Shown piece by piece: positions 19,854-48,700 of a stretch of 64,000 bases of DNA (the stretch's first letter is position 1; every line of letters starts with the position of its first letter). Source of the DNA: Chloroflexota bacterium (lineage in GTDB: Bacteria > Chloroflexota > Anaerolineae > UBA4142); assembly GCA_016223105.1 (NCBI GenBank), contig JACRPR010000040.1, positions 18,940-82,939 on the forward strand, read 5' to 3'. Below the pieces are notes generated by a model, which did not search any database, was not told the origin of the DNA, and saw only the letters and a list, made by a program, of their open reading frames with translations. Position numbers and translations under genes: made by a program.

Positions 19854-20432
19854 ATGTTGGATTCGTCTCTCCGCGATTGGGTCAACCTTCAATCGCATCA
19901 AAACATCAACACCTGTTTCACCTGCGCGAAATGCACGGCGGGCTGTCCGGTCGCGTTCGCGATGGAGTTTGGTCCGCATCGCATTTTGCAAATGGTGCGC
20001 TTTGGAATGAACGACGCCGCGCTCGCGAGCCGCGATATTTGGTTGTGCGCGGGATGCGAAACCTGCGCGACGCGTTGCCCGAACGATGTGGACGTTGCCG
20101 CGCTGATGGACGCGTTGCGCCAAATTTCGCTTGCCAAAAAATCGCGCAACCCCGCGCGCGATATCGCCGACTTTCATCGCGCGTACTTGCTCCTCATCAA
20201 ATTGTTCGGACGCATGCACGAGGCATCGCTGATGATTCTGGTCAAACTGATCACGCGTGATCTGCTCGCGGATATGGGCGCGGGTGTGCAGTTGGTTTTG
20301 AAAGGAAAAATTCCGATTGTGCCGGAACGCATTCGTGGGACAGGTGAAGTGAGCAGAATGTTGAACGCGGAAAAACGTAATTCGCGCGAAGCGTTCGTAA
20401 TTCGTAATTCGCAATTCGGAAATCAAAAATGA
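19854..20432 (+). CDS. hdrC: Heterodisulfide reductase subunit C (HdrC-like)
   Basis: RBS GGAGGA. Two ferredoxin-like motifs, 'CFTCAKCTAGCP' and 'CAGCETCATRCP'. Its stop overlaps the hdrB start (ATGA). Confidence 0.85.
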   Translation: MLDSSLRDWVNLQSHQNINTCFTCAKCTAGCPVAFAMEFGPHRILQMVRFGMNDAALASRDIWLCAGCETCATRCPNDVDVAALMDALRQISLAKKSRNPARDIADFHRAYLLLIKLFGRMHEASLMILVKLITRDLLADMGAGVQLVLKGKIPIVPERIRGTGEVSRMLNAEKRNSREAFVIRNSQFGNQK

Positions 20433-21241
20433 AATTCGCCTATTACCCAGGATGCAGTTTGCACGCGACCGGGTTGGAGTACGACCAATCCACCCGCGCC
20501 GCGTTGTGCGCGCTCGATGTCGAACTCGACGAACTGCGCGATTGGAATTGTTGCGGCGCGTCGTCCGCACACGCACTCGATGCGAACGCCGCGATCCTTC
20601 TCGCCGCGCGCAATCTCGCGCTCGCGCAACGCGCGCATCGCGATGTGATCGCGCCGTGCGCCGCGTGTTTCAATCGGCTCAAAGTTGCGGAGCATATTCT
20701 CAAAACCGATTCGACGCGCCGCGTCGAAATCGAACGCGCGCTCGATTTTTATTACGCCGACGCGACCCAGATTCTCAATCCGATTGACCTGGTCGTGAAT
20801 CACATCGGTTTGCCACGCGTGCGCGCCGCCGTGAAAAATCCGCTCACCGATTTGCGCGTCGTCCCACACATCACGCAATTCGACGATCCCGAACATCCGC
20901 GCGCGCTCGATCAACTCCTCTCCGCCATTGGCGCACAGCCATGCGAGTGGGCGGATGCGACGCATTGTTGCGGCGGCTCGCTCTCGCTGACGCGCGCGAA
21001 CATCGTCATCAAACTCGTGGATGACCTGGTCGCGCACGCGCGCGATGTCAACGCGCAAGCCATCGTTACCGCGTGCCCGCTTTGCCAAATCAATCTCGAA
21101 ATGCGTCAGACGCGCGCGGACAAATTGCCGATTGTGTATTTCACCGAATTGATGGGACTCGCGTTCGGATTAAAAGAATCGCGCAAGTGGTGGGGCAAGC
21201 ATCTCATCAATCCGCGCGAATTGGTGAGCCGGTATCAGTGA
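20429..21241 (+). CDS. hdrB: Heterodisulfide reductase subunit B (HdrB-like, two CCG domains)
   Basis: 'YYPGCSL...NCCGAS...APCAACF' and '...HCCGGSL...TACPLCQ' are duplicated CCG (Cys-rich) motifs. Confidence 0.85.
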   Translation: MKFAYYPGCSLHATGLEYDQSTRAALCALDVELDELRDWNCCGASSAHALDANAAILLAARNLALAQRAHRDVIAPCAACFNRLKVAEHILKTDSTRRVEIERALDFYYADATQILNPIDLVVNHIGLPRVRAAVKNPLTDLRVVPHITQFDDPEHPRALDQLLSAIGAQPCEWADATHCCGGSLSLTRANIVIKLVDDLVAHARDVNAQAIVTACPLCQINLEMRQTRADKLPIVYFTELMGLAFGLKESRKWWGKHLINPRELVSRYQ

Positions 21242-21366: not shown

Positions 21367-22758
21367 ATGTTAAACGATTCAACTAACCAACTATCCAACC
21401 ATCCAACTAACCAACCAACCGGCGCAGTCCTGGTTGTCGGCGCGGGGATTGGCGGAATGCAAGCATCGCTCGATCTCGCGGACGCCGGTTTTAAGGTGTA
21501 CTTGCTCGACCGCGCGCCCGCGATTGGCGGACGAATGGCGCAACTCGACAAAACATTTCCGACGAACGATTGCGCGATGTGCATCATGTCGCCGAAACTC
21601 GTCGAGACCGGACGCCATCTCAACATCGAAATCATCACGACCGCCGATTTGGAAAAAGTTGAAGGCGAGCCGGGAAATTTCACCGCGACGATTCGCGAGC
21701 ATCCGCGTTACGTTGATCTTTCGAAATGCACCGGGTGCGGCGATTGCGCGGCGAAATGTCCGATCACTTTGCCGGATGAATTTAATACCGGGATGAGCGC
21801 GCGCAAAGCGATTTACAAATTGTATCCGCAAGCGATTCCGAACGCGTTCGCGATTGAAAAGCGCGGCATCGCGCCGTGTCGCGACGCGTGCCCCGCGCAT
21901 CAACGCGCGATGGGTTATATCGCGCTGATTCGCGAACGCCGGTTCGCCGACGCGTATCGCGTGATCAAAGAAGACAATCCGTTTCCCTCGATTTGCGGAC
22001 GCGTCTGCATCGCGAAATGCGAGACCGCGTGCAATCGCGCGCAGTTCGATGCGCCGGTTGCGATTCGCGATTTGAAACGTTTCGTCGCGGATTGGGCGTG
22101 GAATCAGTCAGCAGTCAACAGTCAACAGTCAACAGTCGTCAGTCAACAGTCGTCAGTCAATTCCCAATTACCACTTACCAATTACCAGGTCGCAATCATT
22201 GGCTCCGGTCCCGCCGGGATGACCTGCGCGGCAGACCTGGTGCGACAAGGTTATGGCGTTACCGTGTTCGAAGCGTTGCCGGTCGCGGGCGGAATGATGC
22301 GCGTCGGCGTGCCGAATTTTCGCTTGCCGTACGACCGCGTGCAAAAAGAGATTGACGACATTCTCGCGCTTGGCGTCGAACTAAAATTGAACACGCGCAT
22401 TGATGATGTCGAAAAACTTTTCGTGGATGGATTCGATGCGGTCTTCTTCGCGGCTGGTTCACATCGCGCGCGCAAACTGCCGATCCCCAACGCGAATCAT
22501 CCCGACGCGATCCTCTCGTTGGATTTGTTGCGCGATACGAGTTTGGGAATTTCAGAATCAGGGAATCCCCAATCTGAAATCTGCAATTTGAAATCTAAAG
22601 TTGCGAATCGCCGCGTCCTGGTTTTGGGCGGCGGCGCAGTCGCGGTGGACGCGGCGACGACCGCGCGACGACTCGGCGCGTTCAGCGTTGCGATGGCTTG
22701 CCTCGACGCGCGCGCGACAATGCCCGCGACAAAAGAGGATTTGGCGCAAGCTGACTAA
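21367..22758 (+). CDS. HdrL-like giant fusion, N-terminal part (QmoA-like HdrA FAD domain, ferredoxin, NfnB/GltD Fe-S and first Rossmann domain)
   Basis: ATG at 21367 lies after the repeat. 'VVGAGIGGMQASLDLADAGFKVYLLDR...GGRMAQLDKTFPTNDCAMCIMSPK' is HdrA-type. 'CTGCGDCAAKCP'. 'CRDACPA...NPFPSICGRVCIAKCETACNR' and 'VAIIGSGPAGMTCAADL' are GltD/NfnB-type. It ends at an in-frame TAA (22756-22758) in the middle of a conserved domain. Confidence 0.8.
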   Translation: MLNDSTNQLSNHPTNQPTGAVLVVGAGIGGMQASLDLADAGFKVYLLDRAPAIGGRMAQLDKTFPTNDCAMCIMSPKLVETGRHLNIEIITTADLEKVEGEPGNFTATIREHPRYVDLSKCTGCGDCAAKCPITLPDEFNTGMSARKAIYKLYPQAIPNAFAIEKRGIAPCRDACPAHQRAMGYIALIRERRFADAYRVIKEDNPFPSICGRVCIAKCETACNRAQFDAPVAIRDLKRFVADWAWNQSAVNSQQSTVVSQQSSVNSQLPLTNYQVAIIGSGPAGMTCAADLVRQGYGVTVFEALPVAGGMMRVGVPNFRLPYDRVQKEIDDILALGVELKLNTRIDDVEKLFVDGFDAVFFAAGSHRARKLPIPNANHPDAILSLDLLRDTSLGISESGNPQSEICNLKSKVANRRVLVLGGGAVAVDAATTARRLGAFSVAMACLDARATMPATKEDLAQAD

Positions 22759-23013
22759 GAGGGCATTGCGATTTATCCGTCGCGATCGTTCAAACGCGTC
22801 GTCGTCGAAAATGGAAAAATCACCGGCGTCGAATGTGTCAACGTCAAATCGTTCGCGTTCGATAAAGATGGACGACTTGCGCTCGAAACACATCCGAACA
22901 CCGAACACCTTCTCGAATGTGACACGGTAATTTTCGCGATTGGGCAAGGTCCCGATCTCGCGCCGATTCAAAATTCGCAAGGCGCGCAACAAACGCCGCG
23001 GCGCACGCTCGCG

Positions 23014-25968
23014 GTGAATCCCGAAACGCTTGCAACCGGGCGACCTGGTTTGTTCGCCGGCGGCGACGCGGTTACCGGCGTTGGTTTCATCATTGACGCG
23101 ATTGCCGCCGGACATCGCGCCGCAAATTCGATTCAGACATATCTCAGTCGTCGGTCAACAGTCAACAGTCAACAGTTACCAATTACCAATTCAGTCGTGA
23201 AATTATCGCGCGACGAAATCACCGCGCGCGTTGAAACCGGCAAGGTAACAAAACGCGAGCGTGTCGAACGGAAATGGATTGATGCCGGGACGCGCGTGCA
23301 CTCGTTCGAAGAATTTGCATTGCCGATGTCGGAAGAGGAAGCGGTCGCGGAGGCGCAACGCTGTCTCGAATGTGGTGTGTGTTCCGAGTGCCTCGAATGT
23401 GTGTACGCGTGTCGCGCTGGCGCGGTCAATCACGCGGCGATTGAAGCGACGCGTGAACTGCAAGTCGGCGCGGTGATTCTCACACCTGGTGTCGAGCCGA
23501 TTGATTTACGTGCCCCTTCGACTTCGCTCAGGGTGGGCTATCGTCCCGAGTACGGTTACGGGCGTTACCCGAACGTCGTTACGTCGCTCGAGTTCGAACG
23601 CTTTTTGTCCGCAACCGGTCCGACCCAGGGTGTTGTCGCGCGACCGAGCGATGGCGCGCATCCGAAAAAAATCGCGTGGATTCAATGCGTTGGTTCGCGC
23701 GATTGCGCGCGCGACCAGGGCTATTGCTCTTCGATTTGTTGTATGTACGCGACGAAAGAAGCGGTCATTGCGCGCGAGCATAGCGCGGAGATCGCGCCGA
23801 CAATTTTTTATCTCGACATTCGCGCGTACGGCAAAGAGTTCGACCGCTACATCGAGCGCGCGAAAAACCAGGGCGTCCGTTACATTCGCTCGATGGTCAG
23901 CGCGATTGAACCTGGTGCGAACGGAAATTTGAATGTGCGTTACGCGCTCGACGATGGACCCAAGACCGAAGAATTTGAAATGGTCGTGTTGTCGGTCGGC
24001 GTGAAACCGAGCGCGGAAACGCGCGCGCTCGCGCAACGCCTCGGCATCGCGTTGAATGAGTACGGTTTCACGGAATCCATTTCGTTCGCGCCAACCGCGA
24101 CCTCGCGACCTGGTATTTTTGTCGCGGGCACATTCCGCGAACCGAAAGATATTCCAGAGACGGTCATCGAAGCATCCGCCGCCGCCGCGTGCGCGTCGCA
24201 ATTGCTCGCGTCCGCGCGTGGAACGCTCGCGCGCGTCAAAACGTATCCGCCCGAACGCGACGTGGCGGAAGAAGAACCGCGCGTCGGCGTGTTCGTGTGT
24301 CATTGCGGCATCAACATTGGCGGAGTCGTGCGCGTGCCGGAAGTCGTCGAGTTTGCAAAGACGTTGCCGGGTGTCGTGTACGCGGAACACAATCTCTACA
24401 CCTGTTCGCAAGATACGCAAGCGCGTATCAAGGCGCGCATCGAAGAAAATCATCTGAATCGCGTCGTCGTCGCGAGTTGCACGCCGCGCACGCACGAGCC
24501 CTTGTTCCAGGATACATTGCGCGAAGCGGGATTGAACCCTCACCTGTTCGAACTCGCGAATATCCGCGAGCAAGACGCGTGGGTGCATCGCGGCGATCGC
24601 GACGCGGCGACGCGCAAAGCGCAAGACCTGGTCGCGATGATGGTCGCGCGCGCGCAACACGACTCGCCGTTGTATCGCCTCGTGTTCGACATCAATCCGC
24701 GCGCGCTCGTGATCGGCGGCGGATTTGCCGGAATGACTGCGGCGTTGACGATTGCGGAACAGGGGCACGATGTTTTCCTGGTCGAGCGCGACGCCGAGCT
24801 GGGCGGACACGCGCGGCACATTCAGTTTGCAGTGAACGGTGAACAGTCAACAGTCAACTGTGTGGATGTGCAAGCAATGTTGCACGACACGATTGCGCGT
24901 GTGATGGAACATCCGCGCGTGCACGTTTACACGCGCGCAGAAATCAATGATGTTGCCGGTTATGTCGGACGATTTGTTTCGCGGATTCACCTCGCGGATG
25001 AAGACGCGAACATCGCGCTCGATCACGGCGCAATCGTCGTCGCGACCGGCGCGCGCGCCGCGACGCCGCGCGAGTATTTGTATGGCATGGACAACCGCGT
25101 GATCACTCAGCAAGATTTGGAATCGCTGATCATCAATCGAAAATCAGAAATCGAAAATCAAAAATCAATCGTGATGATTCAATGCGTCGGCTCACGCGAC
25201 GAATCGCGCGCGTACTGCTCGCGCATTTGCTGTCAACAGGCAATCAAGAACGCGCTCAAGTTGAAGGAACTGAATCCGCAAACGCAAATCGTCGTGTTGT
25301 ATCGCGACCTGCGCGCGTACGGCTTCAAAGAAGATTTGTATCGCCGCGCGCGCGAGCAAGGTGTTTTGTTTCTGCCGTACGAATTGGATGCCAAGCCGAA
25401 CGTCGCAATCGCGAATGACAAACTGCGCGTTACTGCGCGCGCCGCGTTCGCTCCGAATGGAAAAATCGAACTCGAACCCGACCTGGTTGTGTTGAGCGCG
25501 GGCATCGAGCCGAACGATAACGCGCCGCTCGCGCAACTCTTAAAAGTGCCGCTGACCCAGGATGGATTTTTTCTCGAAGCGCACGCGAAACTGCGCCCGC
25601 TCGATTTCGCCGCCGATGGAATTTTTCTCGCCGGACTCGCGCACTCGCCGCGCGCGCTCGACGAATCGATCGCGCAAGCGCAAGGCGCGGCGATTCGCGC
25701 CGTCGCGCTCTTGTCACAAAAACAACGCGAAGCCGTCGCGACCGTCGCGACCGTGAACGAACGCCTGTGCGCGGGATGCGGCTTGTGTGTCGAGATGTGT
25801 CCGTACGGCGCGCGCGCGCTCGACGCGGACGCGCACATCGCGCAAGTGAACGCGGCGCTGTGCCAGGGTTGCGGCGCGTGCGTAACCGCGTGTCCGAACG
25901 GCGCATCGCAACAACGCGCGTTCGAAATGCCGCAAGTGTTTGCGATGATTGAAAACGCAGTCGCGTAA
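23014..25968 (+). CDS. HdrL-like giant fusion, C-terminal part (end of NfnB/GltD domain, HdrA middle region, complete second HdrA)
   Basis: Same frame as 21367..22758. Homology is continuous from codon 22759 ('EGIAIYP...DTVIFAIGQ...GLFAGGDAVTG'). No ATG/GTG/TTG occurs in frame before the GTG at 23014. 'QCVGSRD...YCSSICCMY', 'VFVCHCGINI', 'ASCTPRTHE', and a terminal 2x[4Fe-4S] ('CAGCGLCVEMCP', 'CQGCGACVTACP'). Confidence 0.8.
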   Translation: MNPETLATGRPGLFAGGDAVTGVGFIIDAIAAGHRAANSIQTYLSRRSTVNSQQLPITNSVVKLSRDEITARVETGKVTKRERVERKWIDAGTRVHSFEEFALPMSEEEAVAEAQRCLECGVCSECLECVYACRAGAVNHAAIEATRELQVGAVILTPGVEPIDLRAPSTSLRVGYRPEYGYGRYPNVVTSLEFERFLSATGPTQGVVARPSDGAHPKKIAWIQCVGSRDCARDQGYCSSICCMYATKEAVIAREHSAEIAPTIFYLDIRAYGKEFDRYIERAKNQGVRYIRSMVSAIEPGANGNLNVRYALDDGPKTEEFEMVVLSVGVKPSAETRALAQRLGIALNEYGFTESISFAPTATSRPGIFVAGTFREPKDIPETVIEASAAAACASQLLASARGTLARVKTYPPERDVAEEEPRVGVFVCHCGINIGGVVRVPEVVEFAKTLPGVVYAEHNLYTCSQDTQARIKARIEENHLNRVVVASCTPRTHEPLFQDTLREAGLNPHLFELANIREQDAWVHRGDRDAATRKAQDLVAMMVARAQHDSPLYRLVFDINPRALVIGGGFAGMTAALTIAEQGHDVFLVERDAELGGHARHIQFAVNGEQSTVNCVDVQAMLHDTIARVMEHPRVHVYTRAEINDVAGYVGRFVSRIHLADEDANIALDHGAIVVATGARAATPREYLYGMDNRVITQQDLESLIINRKSEIENQKSIVMIQCVGSRDESRAYCSRICCQQAIKNALKLKELNPQTQIVVLYRDLRAYGFKEDLYRRAREQGVLFLPYELDAKPNVAIANDKLRVTARAAFAPNGKIELEPDLVVLSAGIEPNDNAPLAQLLKVPLTQDGFFLEAHAKLRPLDFAADGIFLAGLAHSPRALDESIAQAQGAAIRAVALLSQKQREAVATVATVNERLCAGCGLCVEMCPYGARALDADAHIAQVNAALCQGCGACVTACPNGASQQRAFEMPQVFAMIENAVA

Positions 25969-25988
25969 AACGTAAAATGGAGTACGCA

Positions 25989-26405
25989 ATGTCGGACAAT
26001 AATCACGAACCTCGCATCGTCGCGTTTCTGTGTAATTGGTGCACGTACACCGGCGCGGATTTAGCCGGCACATCGCGTCTGCAATATCCGCCGAACGTTC
26101 GCATCATTCGATTGATGTGTAGTGGCGCGGTGGATCCGGTGTATGTGTTAAAGCCACTGCTCGACGGCGCGGATGGCGTGTTGATTGGCGGCTGTCATCC
26201 CGGCGATTGTCATTATCAATCCGGGAATTACAAAGCGCGCCGGCGTTTCGCGGTTTTGCAAGAAACGCTCGACGAACTGGGTTTCGATAAAGACCGTGTG
26301 TGGTTGCGCTGGATTAGCGCGAGCGAAGGCGCGCAATTCGCGGACACAATTCGAGAAATGACCGCGATGTTGAAAAGCAAGTTGGATAGTGCGATAGTTG
26401 GTTAG
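25989..26405 (+). CDS. MvhD/FlpD-like (methyl-viologen-reducing hydrogenase delta subunit family)
   Basis: 'EPRIVAFLCNWCTYTGADLAG...IRLMCSGAVDP...GADGVLIGGCHPGDCHY' is the MvhD signature. ATG at 25989 is preceded by GGAG; the alternative ATG is at 25977. Confidence 0.85.
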   Translation: MSDNNHEPRIVAFLCNWCTYTGADLAGTSRLQYPPNVRIIRLMCSGAVDPVYVLKPLLDGADGVLIGGCHPGDCHYQSGNYKARRRFAVLQETLDELGFDKDRVWLRWISASEGAQFADTIREMTAMLKSKLDSAIVG

Positions 26406-26981: not shown

Positions 26982-27017
26982 AAGAATCGTAAATCGAAAA
27001 TCGAAAATGGAGTTGTG

Positions 27018-27698
27018 ATGGACGACCAGAAATTCATCAACATTTTCATAATGGACAAACACTATCGCGTCCCGGCATCGCTGACGATTATGCGCGCGTT
27101 CGAGTACGCCGGGTACAAGATGATTCGCGGCGTGGGTTGTCGCGGCGGATTTTGCGGCGCGTGCGCGACGGTCTATCGAATGAGCGGCGATAGCAAATTG
27201 TCCGTCGCGCTCGCATGCCAAACCGTCGCGCAAGACGGGATGCGGCTCGCGCAAATTCCATCGTTCCCCGCGAACAAGATGCGGTACGATTTCGCGTCGC
27301 TCGATGCGGACGGCGCGCGCTTGCTGGAAATTTATCCCGAACTGGAATTGTGTAAAGGATGCAACACTTGCACCAAAGCATGTCCCCAGGAATTGCAAGT
27401 GATGGAATATGTCGCGGCAGGTTTGCGCGGCGACATCGCGCAAATGGCGGATTTGAGTTTCGATTGTATCGTGTGCGGATTGTGCACCGTGCGTTGTCCC
27501 GGCGAACTCGCGCCGTACAACATCGCACTGCTCGCGCGGCGCATTTACGGCGCGCGCCTCGCGCCACGCGCGCGGCATCTTGAATCGCGCGTCGCCGAAA
27601 TTCGCGCGGGCAAATGGGATGCGGCAGTGCGCGAGTTGAAAACGTTGCCGCTGGATGAGTTGAAGCGGCGGTACAACGAACGCGAGATTGAAACGTAA
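27018..27698 (+). CDS. SdhB/FrdB-like iron-sulfur protein (2Fe-2S plus two 4Fe-4S-type motifs)
   Basis: 'GCRGGFCGACATV' resembles the SdhB 2Fe-2S motif. 'CKGCNTCTKACP' and 'CIVCGLCTVRCP'. GGAG lies 5 nt upstream of the ATG at 27018. Confidence 0.7.
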   Translation: MDDQKFINIFIMDKHYRVPASLTIMRAFEYAGYKMIRGVGCRGGFCGACATVYRMSGDSKLSVALACQTVAQDGMRLAQIPSFPANKMRYDFASLDADGARLLEIYPELELCKGCNTCTKACPQELQVMEYVAAGLRGDIAQMADLSFDCIVCGLCTVRCPGELAPYNIALLARRIYGARLAPRARHLESRVAEIRAGKWDAAVRELKTLPLDELKRRYNEREIET

Positions 27699-30054: not shown

Positions 30055-31173
30055 ATGACAACTCGCGGTTTGTGGCAAGTCAACAACAACGACCCGCTCG
30101 GCGCGACGCGCGATTTTCTGCGCGCGTTGCTCGACCAAAAAATTGTGGCGGCGTTGCTCGTGCCGATGCACGGCGCGCGCGATGCGGTGATGCCCGCGCT
30201 CGTCAAACATTCGTCGCGGCTCGACCGCGCGGATCCGTTCGCGCCGGTGATGGCGTTCAATTCCGCGCGCCTCGTCGCGATGCTCACGCGCGAGAGCATC
30301 AATGTAAAAATTGGCGTTGTGCTCCGCGCGTGTGAAATTCGCGCGCTGATCGAACTCGTGAAATTTCATCAAGCGAAACTCGACAACACGGTGATAATCG
30401 GCGTGGATTGTTTTGGCACGCTCGATTTTGCGAAATACCAGGACGCGCGCGATGCAATGCCGGATTTGCCCGCGCGATTTTTCGCGCAAGCGCGCAACGG
30501 CAACGTCGCGGGACTCGCGTGGCGCGACGCGTGCGCGACGTGCGAATATCCGACGCCAGCGCACGCGGATATCGCGATCGGTTTTATCGGCATAGACAAT
30601 TCGCAAATGCTCGTTATCGAAACGCGTCCAGAGATCGCGGAGCAACTCGATCTGCACGCGGATTCGACCGGCGCGGAAGCGCGCAACGCGGTGCTGGCGA
30701 ATTTGATCACCCTGCGAACCACCGCGCGCGATGAAACGATCAAGCAATTTCACGATGCGATGCGCGCGAACGGTGGCGCGGCGAGTTATTTCGCCAACTG
30801 TCTTGAATGTACCAATTGCATGAACGCGTGTCCGATTTGTTATTGCAAAGAATGTTTCTTTCGCACCGCGAACGCGGAACACGCGCCGCGCGAATTATTG
30901 CGCTCCGCCGAACGGCACGGCGCGCTCACGATGCCACCCGACGCGGTGTTGTTTCAACTCACGCGCCTCAATCACATGGCGACGAGTTGCGTCGGATGCG
31001 GAATGTGCCAAGCCGCGTGTCCGCAAAACATTCCACTCACCGCGCTGTTTCGCGCGGTCGGCGCGCGCGCGCAGAAAATTTTTGATTACGCACCAGGTCG
31101 CGATGTGAATGAGAAACCGCCGTTTATGGAATTTCGGCGGGACGAGTTGTTGCAGATTGGGGAAAGCCGGTAA
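30055..31173 (+). CDS. FrhB/FdhB-family Fe-S protein, paralog 2
   Basis: Collinear with 28876..29964: 'MTTRxxxxVxNNDxL', 'RACEIRALIEL...IIGVDCFGT', 'ADIAIGFIG' and 'CLECTNCMNACPICYC...CVGCGMCQAACP'. Confidence 0.55.
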   Translation: MTTRGLWQVNNNDPLGATRDFLRALLDQKIVAALLVPMHGARDAVMPALVKHSSRLDRADPFAPVMAFNSARLVAMLTRESINVKIGVVLRACEIRALIELVKFHQAKLDNTVIIGVDCFGTLDFAKYQDARDAMPDLPARFFAQARNGNVAGLAWRDACATCEYPTPAHADIAIGFIGIDNSQMLVIETRPEIAEQLDLHADSTGAEARNAVLANLITLRTTARDETIKQFHDAMRANGGAASYFANCLECTNCMNACPICYCKECFFRTANAEHAPRELLRSAERHGALTMPPDAVLFQLTRLNHMATSCVGCGMCQAACPQNIPLTALFRAVGARAQKIFDYAPGRDVNEKPPFMEFRRDELLQIGESR

Positions 31174-31338: not shown

Positions 31339-32682
31339 ATGCCAAACAGCGCACTCGTAATCGGCGGCGGTATCGCCGGAATTCAAACCGCGCTCGATAT
31401 CGCGGATGCCGGGTTTCATGTGTATCTCGTCGAAAAAGAACCGAGCGTCGGCGGGCGAATGGCGCAACTCGACAAAACATTTCCGACGCTCGATTGTTCC
31501 GCGTGCATCCTCACGCCGAAAATGGTGGATGTCGCGCGCCATCCCAACATCGAACTCATTACGTACTCTGAAGTTTGCAATATCACAAATGGCGCAAGTG
31601 ACTTTTACGCGACAATCAAAAAGAAACCGCGTTACGTTGACACCAACAAATGTACCGGTTGCGGCAGTTGTGCGGAGGCGTGTCGTTTGAAGGGACGCGT
31701 GACCGATACGTTCAACGCGGGGATGGGCAAACGTTCCGCGATCTATGTTCCGTTTCCGCAAGCCGTTCCGCTCAAGTACACCGTGGATCCGACGCAATGC
31801 GTTTATCTCACGCGCGGCGTGTGCGGCAAAACGTTTTTGTGCAAAGACGCGTGCAAAGCGGACGCGATTGATTTCACGCAAAAAGAAGAAATCGTCGAGT
31901 TGAATGTCGGCGCGATTGTCGTCGCGACCGGGTTCGATCCGTTCGACGCCGCACTCAAACCGGAACTGGGTTACGGAATTTATCCGAACGTCATCACGTC
32001 TCTGCAATTTGAACGCTTGTCGTCCGCGTCTGGTCCGACTGCCGGAAAAATTTTGTTGAACGGCAAAGAACCGCGCGAGGTCGTGTTCGTGCAATGCGTC
32101 GGCTCGCGCGATGTGACGACCGGCAATCTGTATTGCTCGCGCGTTTGCTGTATGATTACCGCGAAGCACGCGCACCTGGTCAAAGATAAAATTCATGACG
32201 CGAACGTTACGATTTTTTACGCGGACATGCGCGCGTTCGGCAAAGGGTTTGAAGAATTTTACGACCGCGTGCGCGCGGAAGGCGTCAACTATCGGCGCGG
32301 ATACGTTTCCGAAATTTACGCCGCCGGCGGGCAGACGCCCAAACGCGATGGCAAACTTGTCGTGCGTTCCGAAGACACGCTCATCGGCAAGCCCATCGAA
32401 ACGACTGCCGATCTGGTCGTGTTGAGCGTCGGTCTCGTGCCGCGCGTCGAAACGAACACGCTCGCGCAGATTTTACAGCTCACAAATTCTAGCGACGGTT
32501 TTCTGGCGGAGGCGCATCCGAAAATGTTGCCGGTGGACACAAAAATAAACGGTGTTTACCTCGCGGGCGTCGCGCAAGGGCCGAAAGATATTCCCGACGC
32601 GGTCGCGCACGCGAAGGCGGCGGCGAGCGCGGCGATTGTGCGCTTACGCAGTCGTCAGTCGTCAGTCGCCAGTCAACAGTGA
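31339..32682 (+). CDS. QmoA-like short HdrA (FAD domain only)
   Basis: 'VIGGGIAGIQTALDIADAGFHVYLVEKEPSVGGRMAQLDKTFPTLDCSACILTPKM', 'CTGCGSCAEAC' and 'VQCVGSRD...YCSRVCCM'. It lacks the N-terminal CHCG domain and the C-terminal ferredoxin. Confidence 0.85.
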   Translation: MPNSALVIGGGIAGIQTALDIADAGFHVYLVEKEPSVGGRMAQLDKTFPTLDCSACILTPKMVDVARHPNIELITYSEVCNITNGASDFYATIKKKPRYVDTNKCTGCGSCAEACRLKGRVTDTFNAGMGKRSAIYVPFPQAVPLKYTVDPTQCVYLTRGVCGKTFLCKDACKADAIDFTQKEEIVELNVGAIVVATGFDPFDAALKPELGYGIYPNVITSLQFERLSSASGPTAGKILLNGKEPREVVFVQCVGSRDVTTGNLYCSRVCCMITAKHAHLVKDKIHDANVTIFYADMRAFGKGFEEFYDRVRAEGVNYRRGYVSEIYAAGGQTPKRDGKLVVRSEDTLIGKPIETTADLVVLSVGLVPRVETNTLAQILQLTNSSDGFLAEAHPKMLPVDTKINGVYLAGVAQGPKDIPDAVAHAKAAASAAIVRLRSRQSSVASQQ

Positions 32683-32716
32683 ACAGTGAACTGTTGACTG
32701 ACTACTTGGAGTTAAA

Positions 32717-33835
32717 ATGTTCGACACGGAATCACTCGTCCAACAATACGAACTGACCGCATGTATTCAATGCGGCAAATGCACCGGCGGTTGTCCGATC
32801 GCGCTCAAGAGCGCGTTGAATCCGCGCGCACTCGTCTATCAAATGTTACGCGGCGAAGAATTTGAACTCGTGTCGCGCGGCGAGTTGTGGGATTGCACGA
32901 CGTGCGCGACGTGCGGCTTGCGTTGTCCCAAAGGCGTCAAAGCGGTTGACCTGATTATCGCGTTGCGCGCGCAGTGGATCGAAAGCGGAAAAATTCCGAC
33001 GACGCTTCGCGCACCGCTCACCGCGACGTTGAACCAGGGCAACCCGCTCGTCTTGCCACGCGAAGATCGCTCGCTGTGGGCGGATGGCTTGAACGTCAAA
33101 AATGTCGCGGATGGCGCGGGGATCGCAATGTTCACTTGTTGCGAAAACGCGTACGACCCGCGCGTGCAAGCGATGCCGCGCGCGCTCGTGAATTTGTTAC
33201 GCGCGGCGAACCAGGATTTCGGTACGCTCGGTCTCGACGAGCAATGTTGCGGCAGTGAAGTGCGGCGCATCGGCGAAGCCGGTTTGTTCGAATACTTGCG
33301 CGACGACAACCTCGAAAAATTTCGCGCCGCGCGCGTATCGAAAATGGTAACAACTTCGCCGCATTGTTTCAACGTTTTCAAAAACGAGTACGGCAAACAC
33401 GCAATCCCGGTTGAACATTACACGCAAACGCTCGCGCATTTGATCGCGGACGGCGCGCTGAAATTTTCAAAAAAGTTTCAAGCGACGATCACGTACCAAG
33501 ACCCGTGCTTTCTCGGCAAGCAAAATGGAATTTACGATGAGCCGCGCGCGATTTTGAAAGCGATCCCCGGCGCAAAGTTTGTCGAGATGGATCGCTCGCG
33601 CGAACGAAGCGTATGTTGCGAGGGCGGCGGCGGGCGAATGTGGCTCGAAGGCACGAATAGCCAAGTCCGACTCGCGAACGATCGCATCGCGCACGCGCTC
33701 GACACCGGCGCGAACATTCTCGCGACCGCGTGCCCGTTCTGTTTTCTTACCTTGAGCGACGCGGTGATCGCGACCGGCAACGAAGAAAAAATCAAGGTGA
33801 TGGATATTCTCCAAATTGCGAATGCGGCAATCTGA
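32717..33835 (+). CDS. HdrD-like Fe-S protein (fused HdrC-like ferredoxin plus two CCG domains)
   Basis: 'CIQCGKCTGGCP', 'CTTCATCGLRCP', then 'FTCCENAY...CCGSE' and 'DPCFLG...VCCEGGGG...TACPFC'. Confidence 0.8.
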   Translation: MFDTESLVQQYELTACIQCGKCTGGCPIALKSALNPRALVYQMLRGEEFELVSRGELWDCTTCATCGLRCPKGVKAVDLIIALRAQWIESGKIPTTLRAPLTATLNQGNPLVLPREDRSLWADGLNVKNVADGAGIAMFTCCENAYDPRVQAMPRALVNLLRAANQDFGTLGLDEQCCGSEVRRIGEAGLFEYLRDDNLEKFRAARVSKMVTTSPHCFNVFKNEYGKHAIPVEHYTQTLAHLIADGALKFSKKFQATITYQDPCFLGKQNGIYDEPRAILKAIPGAKFVEMDRSRERSVCCEGGGGRMWLEGTNSQVRLANDRIAHALDTGANILATACPFCFLTLSDAVIATGNEEKIKVMDILQIANAAI

Positions 33836-33854
33836 ATTATGATTTAGGATTGTG

Positions 33855-33915
33855 TTGGATTCGACGCTTTAGCGGGTTGTTGGTCAAGCGAGTAACCGCG
33901 TAAACGCTCGACTCC
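33855..33915. repeat. Family-C element, single unit (inverted)
   Basis: TTGGATTCGACGCTTTAGCGGGTTGTTGG...CCGCGTAAACGCTCGACTCC. Confidence 0.85.
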
Positions 33916-33983
33916 ATCACTTGCGTTCCGCATAATCGGATTTTGCGCGCACACCAAATCATAAATCGAAAATCGAAAATGCT

Positions 33984-35915
33984 ATGAAATCCCAAATCGG
34001 CGTTTACATTTGTCATTGCGGTTTGAATATCGCGAACACGGTGGACGTGGAGCAGGTGCGCGAGTTTGCGCGCATCTTGCCGAACGTCGCGATCGCGCGC
34101 AACTATACGTATATGTGCTCCGACCCAGGTCAAGCGTTGATCACGAACGACATTCGCGACCTGGGATTGACGCACGTCGTCGTCGCGTCGTGTTCGCCGC
34201 GGATGCACGAGCCAACTTTTCGCGCGACGATCCATAAAGCCGGGTTGAATCCGTACGTGTTAGAGATGGCGAACATTCGCGAGCAATGTTCCTGGGTTCA
34301 TTCGGATCGCACGCTCGCGACACTCAAGGCGATGGATTTGATCGCGTCGGCGGTTGCGAAGGTCGCTCTGCTCGTGCCATTGCAAGAGCGCGAGGTCAAG
34401 GTCACTCAATCTGCGCTCGTGATCGGCGGCGGTATCGCGGGAATGACTGCCACGCTCGATATTGCGAACGCCGGCTTCCAGGTTTGTCTCGTCGAAAAGC
34501 AAACACACCTCGGCGGACGCGTCGCGCAACTCGACACAACATTCCCAACCCAGGAACGCGTCGCCGATTTGCTCGCGCCCGTGTTGCGCGCGATAACGAC
34601 GCATCCCAACATTCGCGTCATTACGAACGCGGACGTTGAAAAAGTGGATGGGTTCATCGGCAATTTTCGCGCGACGATTCGCGCGCGCCCGACGTTCGTT
34701 GACGCGATGAAATGCGACGCGTGCGGGAAATGCGTGGACGCGTGCCCGGTGAATGTGCCGGACGCGTTCGACGCGAATCTCACGACGCGCCGCGCGATCT
34801 ATCGCGCGCCGGATGCGCGATTCGTGATCGACGCGCGCGCGTGTTCGTTTGTGCAGGATCGCGTCTGCCGATCCGATCCACGTTGCGCGGCGGTGTGTGA
34901 TCGCAACGCGATTGATTTTTCGCAAACCGAAAATCTGGTCGAGATCAACATCGGCGCGATCATCGTCGCGACCGGTGCGGCAACTTTCGACGCGACGAAA
35001 AAACCGGAACTGGGATTCGGCACGTACTCGAACGTGATCACCTCGTTGCAATTCGAGCGGCTTGCCGCGCGCCAGGAATTGCAATCGGTGAAGGATGTCG
35101 TGTTCGTCTCCTGCGTCGGCTCGCGCGATGCGACGACCGGCAATACCTATTGCTCGCGCGTCTGTTGTATGGTCAACGCGAAACAAGCGCGGCGCATCCA
35201 GGAAAAATTTCCCGACGCGCGCGTAACTGTGTTTTACGCGGACGTGCGCGCGTTCGGCAAAGGGCACGAAGAATTTTACGACGCGGTTCGCAAAACCGGC
35301 GTGCGCTATCGGCGCGGGTACGTGTCCGAAATTTTCGCCGCAGGCGGGCAGACGCCCAAACGCGATCAAAAATTGATCGTGCGCGCGGAAGACACGCTGA
35401 TTCAAAAACCAATCGAAGTTTCTGCCGACCTGGTTGTGCTGGGAATCGGAATGACGCCGCGCGCGGAGACGAACGAAATCGCGAATGTGCTGGGCTTGCC
35501 GCGTTCGGGCGATGGATTTTTGTTGGAGATTCATCCGAAACTGCGCCCGGTCGAAACCGCGGTGGATGGAGTTTTTCTCGCGGGCGCGTGCCAGGGACCA
35601 AAAGACATCGTGGACACGATCGCGCAAGCGCGCGCGGCGGCATCGTCCGCGTTCGCGTCGTTGTGTCGCGGGCAAGTGAAAATCGAATCCGCGACCGCGC
35701 GCGTGGATGAAGAGGTGTGCGCGGGTTGCGGCTTGTGCGTCGCGACGTGTCCGTACGGCGCGCCCGCATTGATCGCGCGCACGGGCACTGCGCGCGTAAA
35801 CCAGGTCTTGTGTAAAGGATGCGGCGCGTGCGAAGCCGCGTGTCCATCGAAAGCGATCCAGGTGATGCAATGCACACCGCGCCAAGTGCTTGCCCAGATC
35901 GCGGTGTTGGCGTAG
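33984..35915 (+). CDS. hdrA: Full-length HdrA-like flavoprotein (N-terminal CHCG domain, FAD domain, C-terminal 2x[4Fe-4S])
   Basis: 'GVYICHCGLNI', 'ASCSPRMHE', 'LVIGGGIAGMTATLDIANAG', 'SCVGSRD...YCSRVCCM', 'CAGCGLCVATCP' and 'CKGCGACEAACP'. The usual 'DKTFPTxDCxxC' site reads 'DTTFPTQERVADLL'. Confidence 0.85.
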   Translation: MKSQIGVYICHCGLNIANTVDVEQVREFARILPNVAIARNYTYMCSDPGQALITNDIRDLGLTHVVVASCSPRMHEPTFRATIHKAGLNPYVLEMANIREQCSWVHSDRTLATLKAMDLIASAVAKVALLVPLQEREVKVTQSALVIGGGIAGMTATLDIANAGFQVCLVEKQTHLGGRVAQLDTTFPTQERVADLLAPVLRAITTHPNIRVITNADVEKVDGFIGNFRATIRARPTFVDAMKCDACGKCVDACPVNVPDAFDANLTTRRAIYRAPDARFVIDARACSFVQDRVCRSDPRCAAVCDRNAIDFSQTENLVEINIGAIIVATGAATFDATKKPELGFGTYSNVITSLQFERLAARQELQSVKDVVFVSCVGSRDATTGNTYCSRVCCMVNAKQARRIQEKFPDARVTVFYADVRAFGKGHEEFYDAVRKTGVRYRRGYVSEIFAAGGQTPKRDQKLIVRAEDTLIQKPIEVSADLVVLGIGMTPRAETNEIANVLGLPRSGDGFLLEIHPKLRPVETAVDGVFLAGACQGPKDIVDTIAQARAAASSAFASLCRGQVKIESATARVDEEVCAGCGLCVATCPYGAPALIARTGTARVNQVLCKGCGACEAACPSKAIQVMQCTPRQVLAQIAVLA

Positions 35916-36987: not shown

Positions 36988-38595
36988 ATGTACACACCAG
37001 AAATGCGCGAATCCATCGCGAAGGTGGAAGCGAGCCGCGCGCGCCGAATGAGCGAACGGCATCCCAGTCTCGCGCCGGACGAACGCCAGGACATTCTCAA
37101 AAAATTTCATCCCGATTTTATCGCGGACGCATTTCGCGCGCTCCGCGTCGGCGCGAATCGCGGCGACAAAACGCCGAACGAACTCGCGGACGTGCTCGAA
37201 GCGCGTTCGCCGATTGACTCGCCCGCGTTCGACTTGAATCGCGTGGACATCGAAACCGATGTGTTGATTATCGGCGGCGGCGGCGCAGGCGCGTGCGCGG
37301 CTCTGCTCGCGCAACAAGCCGGTGCGCGCGTTCTGCTCGCGACCAAATTGCGTTTCGGCGACGCGAACACGATGATGGCGCAAGGCGGCATCCAAGCCGC
37401 CGACAAGGAAAACGATTCGCCCGCGCAACATTATCTCGATGTGATCGGCGGCGGCGGATTCGCGAACGATCCCGACCTGGTGGATGCGCTCGTGAGCGAC
37501 GCGCCGATGGTGATCGCGTGGCTCGAATCGCTTGGCGTGATGTTCGAGAAAACGCGCGACGGCGAAATGGTAACGATTCACGGCGGCGGCACATCGCGCA
37601 AACGGATGCACTTTAGCCGCGATTATTCCGGCGCGGAAATTATGCGCGTCCTGCGCGATGAAGTCCGCAATCGCGATTCGATTCGCGTAATTGAATTTGC
37701 GCCGGCAATCGAACTCGTACTCAACTCGCGCGGACAGTGCGCGGGTGCGATTTTGCAAAACATCGAAACCGGCGAGCATTTGCTCGCGCGCGCGAAAACG
37801 ACAATCATCGCGACCGGCGGATCGGGGCGTTTGCATTATCAAAATTTTCCAACGACGAATCATTACGGCGCGACCGCCGATGGACTCGTGCTGGCGTATC
37901 GCGCCGGCGCGAAACTCGCGTTCATTGACACGATGCAATATCATCCGACCGGCGCGGCGTATCCCGAACAAATCCTGGGACAACTCGTTACCGAAAAAGT
38001 GCGCGGACTCGGCGCGCAAGTGTGCAATGCGGATGGCGAACAATTTGTCTATCCGCTCGAAACGCGCGATGTCGAATCCGCCGCATTCATTCGCGAATGT
38101 CGCGAACGCGGGCGCGGCATCAAAACGCCGACCGGACAATTCGGTGTGTGGCTCGACGCGCCGTTGATTGATCGGTTGCGCGGCGTGGGCACCATCGCGA
38201 AAGAATTACCGGCAATGGTGCGCCAATACAAACGTTTTGGAATTGACCTGGTCAAAGAACCGATCCTGGTTTATCCGACTCTGCATTATCAAAACGGCGG
38301 CGTCGCGATCAAACCGGATGGCGCGACGAGCGTGCCGAATTTATTTGTCGCCGGCGAAGCATCGGGCGGCGTGCATGGGCGCAATCGTTTGATGGGCAAC
38401 AGTTTGCTCGATGTGTGTGTGTTCGGTCGCCGCGCCGGGATCGCGGCGGCGGAACGCGCGCGTGAATACCAGGATGGCGCCGCGCTCACGTTCGATCATC
38501 TCGCGCGCTGGGAACGCGCGCGCGCGGACGCCGGTTTGAACGATGGCATCGTCGCGCCGATCCTGTTGCCGGATTACACGCGGCACGGGCGCTGA
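36988..38595 (+). CDS. FAD-dependent succinate dehydrogenase/fumarate reductase flavoprotein-like oxidoreductase (TfrA/NadB-like)
   Basis: 'DVLIIGGGGAGACAAL', 'ANTMMAQGGIQAA', 'HPTG' and 'GLFVAGEASGGVHGRNRLMGNSLLD' are SdhA/FrdA-family motifs. RBS GGAG. Confidence 0.8.
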   Translation: MYTPEMRESIAKVEASRARRMSERHPSLAPDERQDILKKFHPDFIADAFRALRVGANRGDKTPNELADVLEARSPIDSPAFDLNRVDIETDVLIIGGGGAGACAALLAQQAGARVLLATKLRFGDANTMMAQGGIQAADKENDSPAQHYLDVIGGGGFANDPDLVDALVSDAPMVIAWLESLGVMFEKTRDGEMVTIHGGGTSRKRMHFSRDYSGAEIMRVLRDEVRNRDSIRVIEFAPAIELVLNSRGQCAGAILQNIETGEHLLARAKTTIIATGGSGRLHYQNFPTTNHYGATADGLVLAYRAGAKLAFIDTMQYHPTGAAYPEQILGQLVTEKVRGLGAQVCNADGEQFVYPLETRDVESAAFIRECRERGRGIKTPTGQFGVWLDAPLIDRLRGVGTIAKELPAMVRQYKRFGIDLVKEPILVYPTLHYQNGGVAIKPDGATSVPNLFVAGEASGGVHGRNRLMGNSLLDVCVFGRRAGIAAAERAREYQDGAALTFDHLARWERARADAGLNDGIVAPILLPDYTRHGR

Positions 38596-41217: not shown

Positions 41218-41433
41218 ATGGAAACAGGTTTGCTCGCGATTGGCGCGGGACTCGCAGTGGGCTTGGCGGCGATTGGCACCGGACTCGCGCAAGGGCGCAT
41301 CGGTTCGGCGGGCGCGGGCGCGATTGCCGAAAAGCCGGAACTCGTCGGCACGATGATCATTTTGCTCGCGATTCCCGAAACGATGATCATCCTGGGATTC
41401 GCGGTCGCCGCGATCATTTTGCTCGTCAAGTAA
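41218..41433 (+). CDS. atpK: V/A-type ATPase proteolipid subunit K (single hairpin, 71 aa)
   Basis: RBS GGGAGG. Two Gly/Ala-rich helices. 'GLAQGRIG' in helix 1 and the carboxylate motif 'AIPETMIILG' in helix 2. Confidence 0.85.
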   Translation: METGLLAIGAGLAVGLAAIGTGLAQGRIGSAGAGAIAEKPELVGTMIILLAIPETMIILGFAVAAIILLVK

Positions 41434-41510
41434 TTTCAAATTTCATATTTCAAATTGCAAATTAACAATCTGAAATTTGAAATTTGAAATCTGAAATTGT
41501 TGGAGGATGC

Positions 41511-45535: not shown

Positions 45536-45606
45536 TTTATGATTGCTGATTTATGATTTATGATTTCAGCGTGCGCGCCGCGTGTTTCAGAATGGAACTT
45601 GCGAAA

Positions 45607-45746: not shown

Positions 45747-45822
45747 AGCAATCGGATTTATGATTTTGAAACGCGCACAGTTCAAATCAGAAATCATAAA
45801 TCAGAAATCCTAAATCTGAAAT

Positions 45823-47458: not shown

Positions 47459-48103
47459 ATGGAAAACACAAGCCCGACGCGCATGGAATTGCTCGCGGTC
47501 AAAGCGCAAATCGGTTTGGCGGAACAAGGGCGCGATCTGCTGAAAGAAAAACGCAACGCGCTGATGAAAGAATTTTTAAAGATCGCGGATGCCGTGATGC
47601 GCGATAGCGATGAGTTGGAGCAAGCGGTCGCGGATGCGCGGCACGCGCTCGCGCGCGCGGAGGCGTTGGATGGCGCGGAAGCGGTGCGCTCCGCATCGTT
47701 CGCCGCGCGGCACGAATTGGCGCTCACGGTCGAGGGCGCGTTCGTGATGGGTGTGCCGGTGCCAATCATCGAAACGACGAGCGCGGCGCGCGGCGCATTG
47801 GATCGCGGGTACAGTTTGCCGGGAACGTCCGCGCGGATTGACCTGGTTGCGGAACGGTTTGAAGAAGCGGTGGATGTGCTGATCGAACTCGCGGCGAGCG
47901 AATTGCGTTTGCGGCGTTTGGCGAACGAGATTCAAAAAACGAGTCGGCGTGTGAACGCGTTGGAAAATATCCTACTGCCGCGTTTGTCCACGCGCCGCGC
48001 GTACATCGAAATGGTGTTGGAAGAACGCGCGCGCGAAGATTTGTTTCGCTTGAAAACGGTCAAGCGCGCGATTCAGCGCAAGCGAACAACAAACGCCACC
48101 TGA
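47459..48103 (+). CDS. atpD: V/A-type ATPase subunit D
   Basis: 'PTRMELLAVKAQIGLAEQGRDLLKEKRNAL' and the C-terminal 'LENILLPRL...ERAREDLFRLK' are typical of subunit D. ATG at 47459. Confidence 0.9.
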   Translation: MENTSPTRMELLAVKAQIGLAEQGRDLLKEKRNALMKEFLKIADAVMRDSDELEQAVADARHALARAEALDGAEAVRSASFAARHELALTVEGAFVMGVPVPIIETTSAARGALDRGYSLPGTSARIDLVAERFEEAVDVLIELAASELRLRRLANEIQKTSRRVNALENILLPRLSTRRAYIEMVLEERAREDLFRLKTVKRAIQRKRTTNAT

Positions 48104-48131
48104 GCGAAACCGGTCAGGTGGCGTTCGTTTT
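48091..48131. terminator. Hairpin terminator after the ATPase operon
   Basis: AACGCCACCTGA...TCAGGTGGCGTT (12-bp stem that includes the atpD stop) followed by CGTTTTC. It sits between convergent genes. Confidence 0.6.
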
Positions 48132-48277
48132 CACGCCAGCAACAGCGCGAGCGCGATGATGATTCCGATGATCGCGACAATCGCGAGCACGATCAGCGCA
48201 CAGCCCTTGACGCCGTACTTTTCGTACAGTTCGCCAATGTCCATAATCGTGTCGAGCAAATCTCCGAGTGCGCCCAT
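48131..48277 (-). CDS. Small membrane protein (48 aa), uncertain
   Basis: ATG at 48277 with strong RBS AAGGAGA. The C-terminal hydrophobic helix is 'ALIVLAIVAIIGIIIALALLLA'. It overlaps the 3' end of ORF 48193..48651 in another frame. Confidence 0.45.
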   Translation of the reverse strand: MGALGDLLDTIMDIGELYEKYGVKGCALIVLAIVAIIGIIIALALLLA

Positions 48278-48651: not shown

Positions 48652-48700
48652 ATTTCCCCCTTTCGCGGTTTTCGTGTTTTCGCGTTTTCGTGTTTCGCGG

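Follow-up and report, generated by a model that had tools for sequence, protein, structure and literature searches.

Complementary HdrA modules that divide the mobile arm and the cysteine pair in a Chloroflexota gene cluster, and their interpretation as halves of an asymmetric dimer

Two sets of HdrA, the flavin subunit of heterodisulfide reductase (Hdr), are encoded in a 64,000-nucleotide stretch of a Chloroflexota bacterium (assembly GCA_016223105.1, contig JACRPR010000040.1, positions 18,940 to 82,939; here called the window, with coordinates counted from its first letter). Both sets lie inside a single co-oriented gene cluster on the + strand at 17.8-38.6 kb, and each consists of two modules, designated type I and type II. 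The standalone type I protein (31339..32682, +, 447 residues) carries the motif 'DCSAC' (31492-31506), an inserted ferredoxin (31651-31854) and the cysteines of cluster HA4 (32095-32151), lacks both N- and C-terminal domains and is 100% identical to an HdrA-family protein deposited at NCBI as 'MAG: Chloroflexi bacterium'. The standalone type II protein (33984..35915, +, 643 residues) contains CHCGLNI (34011-34031), CSPRMHE (34191-34211), 'QERVAD' (34551-34568), an inserted ferredoxin, HA4 cysteines (35112-35168) and a C-terminal 2x[4Fe-4S] ferredoxin (35718-35846). Between the two lies the gene of an HdrD/TfrB-like subunit with 2x[4Fe-4S] and two CCG domains (32717..33835, +; Pfam CCG 3e-27 and Fer4_8). 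In the other set both modules share one frame (+) starting at ATG 21367 and open from GTG 21259. Its first piece (21367..22758) comprises the N-terminal part of the type I' flavin core with 'DCAMC' (21568-21582), the first inserted-ferredoxin cluster and, from 21862, an NfnB/GltD-like insertion, and ends with an in-frame TAA. The continuation in the same frame (22759..24282) holds the remainder of the insertion to ~23350, the second inserted-ferredoxin cluster and the C-terminal part of the type I' core with its HA4 cysteines (23686-23742). It is followed by the type II' module (24283..25968) with the N-terminal domain CHCGINI...CTPR, a flavin core without cysteine pair (site 24817-24873), HA4 cysteines and a C-terminal 2x[4Fe-4S] ferredoxin.

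Each cysteine of M. wolfeii HdrA (5ODC_A, its sequence rebuilt from the alignment) was mapped onto all four modules. The standalone type II protein aligns to residues 5-644 of this reference (E 9e-198), the standalone type I protein to residues 145-567 only (E 5e-148). All four modules possess the thioredoxin-reductase-like flavin adenine dinucleotide (FAD) core with its GxGxxG fingerprint and the HA4 cysteines (Cys386/399/403/404). The pair Cys194/Cys197 of canonical HdrA (DCxxC) is found in the type I modules only, as 'DCSAC' in the standalone and 'DCAMC' in the fused copy; the type II modules read R/D (in 'QERVAD') and S/A, respectively. The N-terminal domain with Cys11/13/46/71 and the C-terminal ferredoxin with all eight of its cysteines are confined to the type II modules. 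Three of the four modules contain the inserted ferredoxin, namely the two of type I and the standalone type II, the latter with a differently spaced second motif; the fused type II module has none. Summed, types I and II hold every canonical domain and every cluster-binding cysteine. Neither standalone protein reaches the curated cut-offs of the NCBIfam HdrA and HdrA2 models (HdrA2, NF040770: 559.6 bits for type I and 744.2 bits for type II, cut-off 1100). An earlier reading of the window made from the letters only (the sequence-only reading) had described type I as an FAD domain with inserted ferredoxin and cysteine pair, and type II as carrying the N-terminal domain and the C-terminal 2x[4Fe-4S] without such a pair; it had also proposed an alignment against structurally characterised HdrA. 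This alignment, run with 5ODC, bears out both descriptions, adds the HA4 site to type I and shows that the complementarity in ligand content is exact.

To follow the partition in other organisms, a genome scan with one genome per species was seeded with type I, yielding 80 loci from many phyla, and each HdrA module was typed by its domains and by residues 194/197. Since the search patterns included the cysteine pair and the scan was therefore biased toward sequences possessing it, a reverse scan of metagenome contigs was seeded with type II, giving 65 metagenome loci. Over both sets (loci numbered with the prefix L), types I and II are neighbors or fused in almost every case, and canonical HdrA stands alone. 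A pair-less module bearing the end domains occurs in 13 of the 80 genome loci; in all 13 the module with the cysteine pair lacks the C-terminal ferredoxin, and in 11 of them it lacks the N-terminal domain fully as well. Starting from type I, a type II module is adjacent or fused in 11 of 12 genome loci, the exception being a 2.7 kb contig that ends just past type I. The partners are adjacent in L003, L004, L009, L011, L013, L020, L021 and L025, and fused within one polypeptide in L001, L004, L024 and L065; further natural fusions are found in the window and in L102, L109, L122 and L137. The remaining 67 genome loci contain HdrA with the cysteine pair only, nearly always with both end domains, and zero pair-less modules. 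In the reverse direction, type I or its 3' end lies upstream of type II in 21 of 23 informative metagenome loci (by our own reading of the listing), the usual order being type I, HdrD, type II. A complementary pattern recurring in dozens of independent loci is not due to chance.

The two positions themselves follow the same division, being Cys in 14 of 14 type I proteins and never Cys in 20 type II proteins, in which every other ligand is 95-100% conserved, with Cys11/13/46/71, HA4 and the eight C-terminal cysteines reaching 100%. Among these 20 proteins there is no conserved new cysteine column that could compensate; one extra position in the N-terminal domain is Cys in 55%. The sequence-only reading had named three outcomes that would speak against it, namely that the DCxxC cysteines are neither cluster nor FAD-site ligands, that type II proteins supply equivalent cysteines elsewhere and that both types do not co-occur in other genomes; none of the three was found. 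Its statement that the types always occur together holds in nearly all loci, where they are fused or in tandem; L116 and L119 have no type I within ~6 kb. It had further suggested an obligate heteromeric unit with redistributed Fe-S ligands. One heteromeric HdrA unit is well supported by the comparison, but no ligand has moved: redistribution is the wrong description because each chain merely lacks one of two symmetric sets.

Trees were computed by neighbor joining from 336 core columns, and a subset of 65 sequences was bootstrapped 100 times. Standalone type II forms a single clade in 72/100 replicates, and in 66/100 it is joined by standalone type I and one canonical HdrA. The clade of fused type II' modules and that of fused type I' modules are each recovered in 100/100, and monophyly of type I as a whole is unsupported (8/100). 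As no replicate (0/100) unites standalone type II with fused type II', the complementary partition arose independently at least twice; a third instance is probably present in the 'SETFPTLDCSQC' lineage (L067). Within the window, the standalone types I and II are closest paralogs with 60% identity over the flavin core, compared to 30-45% toward the fused modules. In each of the 23 pairs compared, similarity to canonical HdrA is lower for the type II core than for the core of its type I partner, by 3-14 percentage points. This further drift of the type II core fits a working core located in type I. In 11 bacterial loci with otherwise canonical HdrA (L022, L028, L030, L031, L032, L039, L040, L047, L098, L125 and L127), the codon for position 197 is TGA ('DCSAxILT') and homology continues on both sides. 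These loci likely encode selenocysteine-containing HdrA in Chloroflexota, Syntrophomonadaceae and other lineages; a selenocysteine at position 197 would argue for a redox-active role of the cysteine pair.

According to a cryo-electron microscopy study from 2026, the end domains of HdrA form a mobile arm that serves the cysteine pair, the FAD and the inserted ferredoxin of the partner subunit (PMC13580544; primes on residues and cofactors denote the partner). In state 1, the arm places the [2Fe-2S] cluster of MvhD near Cys202'/Cys205' and FAD'. After rotation, the high-potential electron of FAD' passes via HA4' to HdrBC and the low-potential electron to the shuttle cluster HA3 of the arm, which then delivers it to HA5'/HA6' in the inserted ferredoxin of the partner (PMC13580544). 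Between the MvhD [2Fe-2S] and the partner-side FAD the cysteine pair holds an unidentified ligand, and the entry of electrons via the pair is termed mechanistically unknown in that work (PMC13580544). By contrast, Chadwick et al. 2022 describe Cys197 as a trans ligand of the N-terminal cluster of the partner (PMC9012536). With an eight-residue offset in the 5ODC_A alignment, Cys202/205 of M. marburgensis correspond to Cys194/197 of M. wolfeii. Either way, Fe-S ligand or not, the cysteine pair acts across the dimer. The MvhD of the window (25977..26405, +; [2Fe-2S] FlpD family, Pfam FlpD 7e-54; 5ODC_D, E 1e-49), probably the arm-bound electron-input subunit, keeps the equivalents of Cys16, His68 and Asp71 ('NWC', 'GGCHPGDCHY'), which are the residues reported to face the cysteine pair.

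We propose, with a probability of roughly 0.7, that types I and II are the halves of an asymmetric HdrA dimer that retains one of the two mirror-image bifurcation routes of canonical (HdrA)2. The proteins encoded at 31339 and 33984 would form a heterodimer, and the fused copy an intramolecular pseudo-dimer. Hereby, type II would supply the arm, i.e. the N-terminal domain, the C-terminal ferredoxin and the docking site for MvhD, with its own core serving as scaffold, and type I would be the arm-less working core that provides the cysteine pair, FAD, HA4 and the inserted ferredoxin. The arm of type II would carry the MvhD [2Fe-2S] to the cysteine pair and FAD' of type I and would then shuttle the low-potential electron from FAD' to HA5'/HA6' of type I. 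From HA4' of type I the high-potential electron would be handed to HdrBC, with one HdrBC or HdrD/TfrB-like module per pair taking up these electrons. Such an arrangement would account for what is observed. With type I armless, the core of type II would stay unfed, which would explain that type II is always devoid of the cysteine pair and often of the inserted ferredoxin; and with a single route per I/II dimer, one HdrBC or HdrD gene per pair would be sufficient. One such gene or gene pair per I/II pair is found in the window, HdrB/C for the fused and the HdrD-like gene for the standalone modules. Candidate electron donors would be the FrhB-like proteins and, through the NfnB-like insertion, NAD(P)H, and the TfrA-like flavoprotein encoded downstream would be a candidate acceptor.

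Several observations weigh against the asymmetric dimer. There is no heterodimeric HdrA in the PDB, and only homodimeric HdrA structures match types I and II. The standalone pair has no MvhD of its own, the single MvhD gene lying 5 kb upstream; the fused copy of the present assembly contains the in-frame TAA; and L001 shows two cores with cysteine pair for one visible arm. In type II, the FAD-binding fingerprint and the HA4 cysteines are kept, and in the standalone copy the inserted ferredoxin as well, so that its core is not obviously dead. Furthermore, HdrD and type II are separated by EtfB/EtfA in L116 and L119, and a type I gene is absent from the surrounding ~6 kb. The trees were made by neighbor joining only, which leaves room for long-branch effects on the fused clades. 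The two published readings of the role of the cysteine pair disagree, and the assignment of Cys197 as ligand is taken here from two secondary accounts that are mutually inconsistent (PMC9012536, PMC13580544). In L116 (4640-6396) and L119, which belong to one type II sub-lineage, the EtfB and EtfA genes fill the place of type I; this may represent a different partnership, of an arm-bearing pair-less HdrA with Etf.

Part of this evidence would suit separate I2 and II2 homodimers, working one after the other or in distinct complexes, whose genes are adjacent only due to a shared pathway. In that case I2, a small oxidoreductase with flavin and FeS, would resemble sHdrA or QmoA, and II2 would be an arm-bearing HdrA without the pair. 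Truncated HdrA can indeed homodimerise, sHdrA (6TJR) is among the PDB matches, and both the FAD and HA4 motifs retained in type II and the type II genes of L116 and L119 without adjacent type I are compatible with homodimers. Nevertheless we regard them as unlikely, given that I and II are repeatedly fused in nature within one polypeptide, that the reciprocal losses are strict and match what acts in trans in the solved dimers, that the partition arose independently in separate lineages, and that a single HdrBC or HdrD module accompanies each pair.

Pairing might also extend beyond each set, within one larger supercomplex in which, for instance, the standalone type I works with the fused type II' or one MvhD-loaded arm serves several cores. 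Such a complex would account for both sets lying in one co-oriented cluster with a single MvhD, for the syntenic block HdrC-HdrB-fused(I'-II')-MvhD-FrhB-like-I-HdrD-II of L102, L109 and L122, and for the standalone type I directly 5' of fused I'-II' in L001. It appears quite improbable to us since a standalone I-II pair without a fused copy exists in the Desulfobacterota loci L009, L011, L020 and L021, and since the standalone I and II are more similar to one another (60% core identity) than either is to the fused modules, their clades being broadly parallel in a single unreplicated neighbor-joining tree. Finally, one member of each pair could be a decaying duplicate without function of its own, in accordance with the faster divergence of the type II core compared to the type I core, the heptamer-repeat insertion in the former DCxxC loop of fused type II and the in-frame TAA of the fused gene. 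We give this very little credence: full-length open frames are conserved across phyla, the remaining cluster ligands are conserved in the 20 type II (95-100%) and 14 type I proteins (100%), and homology is undiminished past the TAA.

The idea of an asymmetric dimer has precedents. In anaerobic methanotrophic (ANME) archaea, the tandem HdrA5/6 and HdrA12/13 and the fused HdrA3/4 are complementary in their content of Cys197, N-terminal domain and C-terminal ferredoxin (Chadwick et al. 2022, PMC9012536); a symmetry-breaking HdrA heterodimer was proposed for them, and the same arrangement was noted in the HdrA of the Moorella MetFV-Hdr complex (PMC9012536). As this complementarity is already published for ANME archaea and Moorella, the heteromer hypothesis of the sequence-only reading is a rediscovery, having been reached independently by Chadwick et al. 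2022 (PMC9012536). Judged in the same manner, the window has arm-bearing pair-less partners at 33984-35915 and 24283-25968 and armless partners with the cysteine pair at 31339-32682 and 21367-24282, either in tandem with one HdrD-like gene between them or fused in one TAA-interrupted frame. The standalone proteins resemble HdrA5/6 and HdrA12/13 in being tandem paralogs of complementary content, including the C-terminal ferredoxin. They differ from them by their bacterial host (Chloroflexi/Anaerolineae), by the HdrD/TfrB-like gene between the partners and by a context of MvhD, FrhB-like, acyl-CoA-dehydrogenase-like and TfrA-like genes instead of methanogenesis-type genes. Presumably the host is devoid of coenzyme M and coenzyme B (our assumption).

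The fused copy shares with ANME HdrA3/4 and with the HdrA of Moorella thermoacetica MetFV-HdrABC-MvhD the presence of two modules per polypeptide, the complementary loss of Cys197 and N-terminal domain, and the proposal that each polypeptide is its own heterodimeric partner. Compared to HdrA3/4 its order is reversed, the armless module with the cysteine pair coming first and the arm-bearing module second, and compared to both fusions its first module carries an NfnB-like insertion and its frame is broken by a TAA. NfnB insertions are known from HdrA9-11 of ANME-1 (PMC9012536), where, as in the window, ~500 residues of NfnB/GltD-like sequence split the inserted ferredoxin domain; in the window, however, the interrupted module is of type I and is in turn fused to type II. 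The window thus differs from the published arrangement (PMC9012536) in its bacterial host, in the core-first fusion, which also shares its frame with an NfnB insertion, in the HdrD/TfrB-like gene that separates the tandem partners and in the gene context. The canonical (HdrABC-MvhAGD)2 and Fdh/Elp-Hdr complexes (5ODC, 7BKB, 8RVU, 9SW2) have MvhD and HdrB/C-like partners in common with the window, but are symmetric homodimers with two arms and two cores, whereas the chains of the window provide one each and hence would allow at most one route per dimer.

QmoA/QmoB of sulfate reducers, which we take to be a single unit, are likewise a short and a long HdrA-related flavoprotein encoded together. 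Compared to QmoB, the type II of the window has the HdrA N-terminal domain and no C-terminal MvhD-like domain. No Qmo family model appears among the listed NCBIfam matches of type I or type II (for type II the best 25 of 37), and no QmoC-type membrane subunit, Apr or Sat was found among the cluster neighbors scanned with Pfam; the NCBIfam qmoC model weakly matches the ferredoxin part of the HdrD-like protein (2e-12, under the cut-off). An identity of types I and II as QmoA/QmoB or sHdrA is unsupported by the NCBIfam and PDB matches.

The sequence-only reading had treated 21367-25968 as one giant open reading frame (ORF), which proved to be broken by a TAA at 22756-22758, within the NfnB-like insertion. 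At this position the uninterrupted homolog L004 has Glu, such that a single change from GAA to TAA is sufficient. The fused HdrA is 58% identical to L004 overall, and homology continues undiminished across the stop. Either an error in the assembly or strain, or a gene inactivated or split very recently, could account for the TAA. A selenocysteine at this stop was ruled out, the codon being TAA and not TGA and the L004 homolog having Glu. The insertion itself (~500 residues, ~21862-23350; Fer4_20 and Pyr_redox_2) lies between the two CxxCxxCxxxC motifs of the inserted ferredoxin of fused type I. NfnB-like insertions are also present in L008 and L125, where HdrA is otherwise canonical and has its Cys (or Sec) pair as well as the two end domains; insertion and I/II partition are hence independent modifications. 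The lone Cys of fused type II at the former DCxxC site ('...GEQSTVNC') is part of a six-residue insertion without counterpart in L004, encoded by a heptanucleotide tandem repeat (24830-24862), and is not a conserved ligand.

Heptanucleotide tandem arrays (CAGTCAA, AATCAAA, AAATCAG and others) are scattered over the window in intergenic (e.g. 41432-41498, 45533-45566 and 45784-45822) as well as coding regions (22105-22187, 23154-23191, 24830-24862, 25135-25168 and 32649-32691). Within genes they add 'QSTVNSQ'-type peptides to linkers, to the loop of fused type II that formerly held DCxxC and to the type I C-terminus. They resemble the short tandemly repeated repetitive (STRR) heptamers of cyanobacteria.

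The gene cluster starts with a histidine kinase and a LuxR-type response regulator, followed by an HdrC-like 2x[4Fe-4S] subunit (19854..20432, +; Pfam Fer4_17/Fer4_8) directly 5' of an HdrB-like CCG-domain subunit (20429..21241, +; Pfam CCG 5e-22; NCBIfam CoB_CoM_SS_B 8e-36, under the cut-off), which together make up the first set with the fused HdrA. Between MvhD (25977) and type I HdrA lie two ferredoxins, an acyl-CoA-dehydrogenase-like gene and two FrhB-like genes, one of which is the conserved 5' neighbor of type I and encodes an FrhB/FdhB-like iron-sulfur flavoprotein, a candidate electron donor module (30055..31173, +; Pfam FrhB_FdhB_C and Fer4). On the 3' side of type II HdrA, a Usp gene and a fumarate-reductase-like flavoprotein (36988..38595, +; Pfam FAD_binding_2 8e-70), a possible acceptor module judging from synteny, precede a V/A-type ATPase operon. 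This flavoprotein and the HdrD-like protein (32717-33835) have as best NCBIfam matches the thiol:fumarate reductase subunits TfrA (1e-102) and TfrB (3e-47), both under the cut-off.

In Anaerolineae the block reads HdrC, HdrB, fused(I'-II'), MvhD, FrhB-like, type I, HdrD, type II, ferredoxin and TfrA-like. HdrC-HdrB is found 5' of fused HdrA in L102, L109 and L122 as well, the order MvhD, FrhB-like, type I, HdrD, type II is kept in L101-L103, L109, L111, L122, L129 and L133, and an HdrD-like gene separates types I and II in many loci. Many loci of Clostridia, Acidobacteriota and Chloroflexi have, next to an HdrABC-MvhD-FrhB-like cluster, a ferredoxin gene and then a TfrA-like flavoprotein gene, which suggests an Hdr-linked fumarate-reductase-like enzyme in such clusters. 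The window ferredoxin at 27015-27698 was considered along with the TfrB-like and TfrA-like genes. In Desulfobacterota, the I-II pair lies among acyl-CoA-dehydrogenase-like genes. With donors and acceptors varying between neighborhoods, the I/II unit looks like a portable bifurcation engine, a role at which the gene contexts hint faintly.

The pairs of the window are a real feature with a coherent functional logic, and constitute a bacterial instance of the published arrangement. What is added here is the breadth of the pattern, which is widespread in bacteria (Chloroflexota, Desulfobacterota and others) beyond ANME archaea, its independent origins and its fit to the mobile-arm model. This wide spread, the repeated origin and the faster drift of the arm-bearing core argue for a functional coupling of arm and cysteine pair across the dimer interface. 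An enzyme with one arm and one core with cysteine pair is simpler than the symmetric dimer for dissecting how electrons reach the bifurcating flavin of heterodisulfide reductase, as each mutation would hit one route only. It is conceivable, though we hold it only tentatively, that the pairs represent a natural 'half-of-sites' Hdr with at least two origins in bacteria and archaea, that the reciprocal losses amount to genetic evidence for Cys/Sec194-197 as the trans entry point of the partner's arm, and that the Chloroflexi possess, with a TfrAB-like acceptor and FrhB-like or NAD(P)H donors, an uncharacterised bifurcating enzyme. For annotation, 'HdrA' calls of ~445 residues and pair-less calls of ~640 residues should be taken for partner subunits of a single enzyme and not for redundant paralogs.

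Outside the Hdr cluster, the region 48001-50000 has a guanine-plus-cytosine content of 0.46, compared to ~0.57 elsewhere, and lies at the 3' end of a minus-strand ORF of 1056 residues (48701-51871) adjoining one of 1046 residues. In-frame tandem repeats are present at 59392-59840 (units of 42 and 30 nt) and 56468-56599 (units of 18/36/54 nt), within the repeat-containing protein ORFs 58869-60038 (-) and 55483-56763 (+), respectively.

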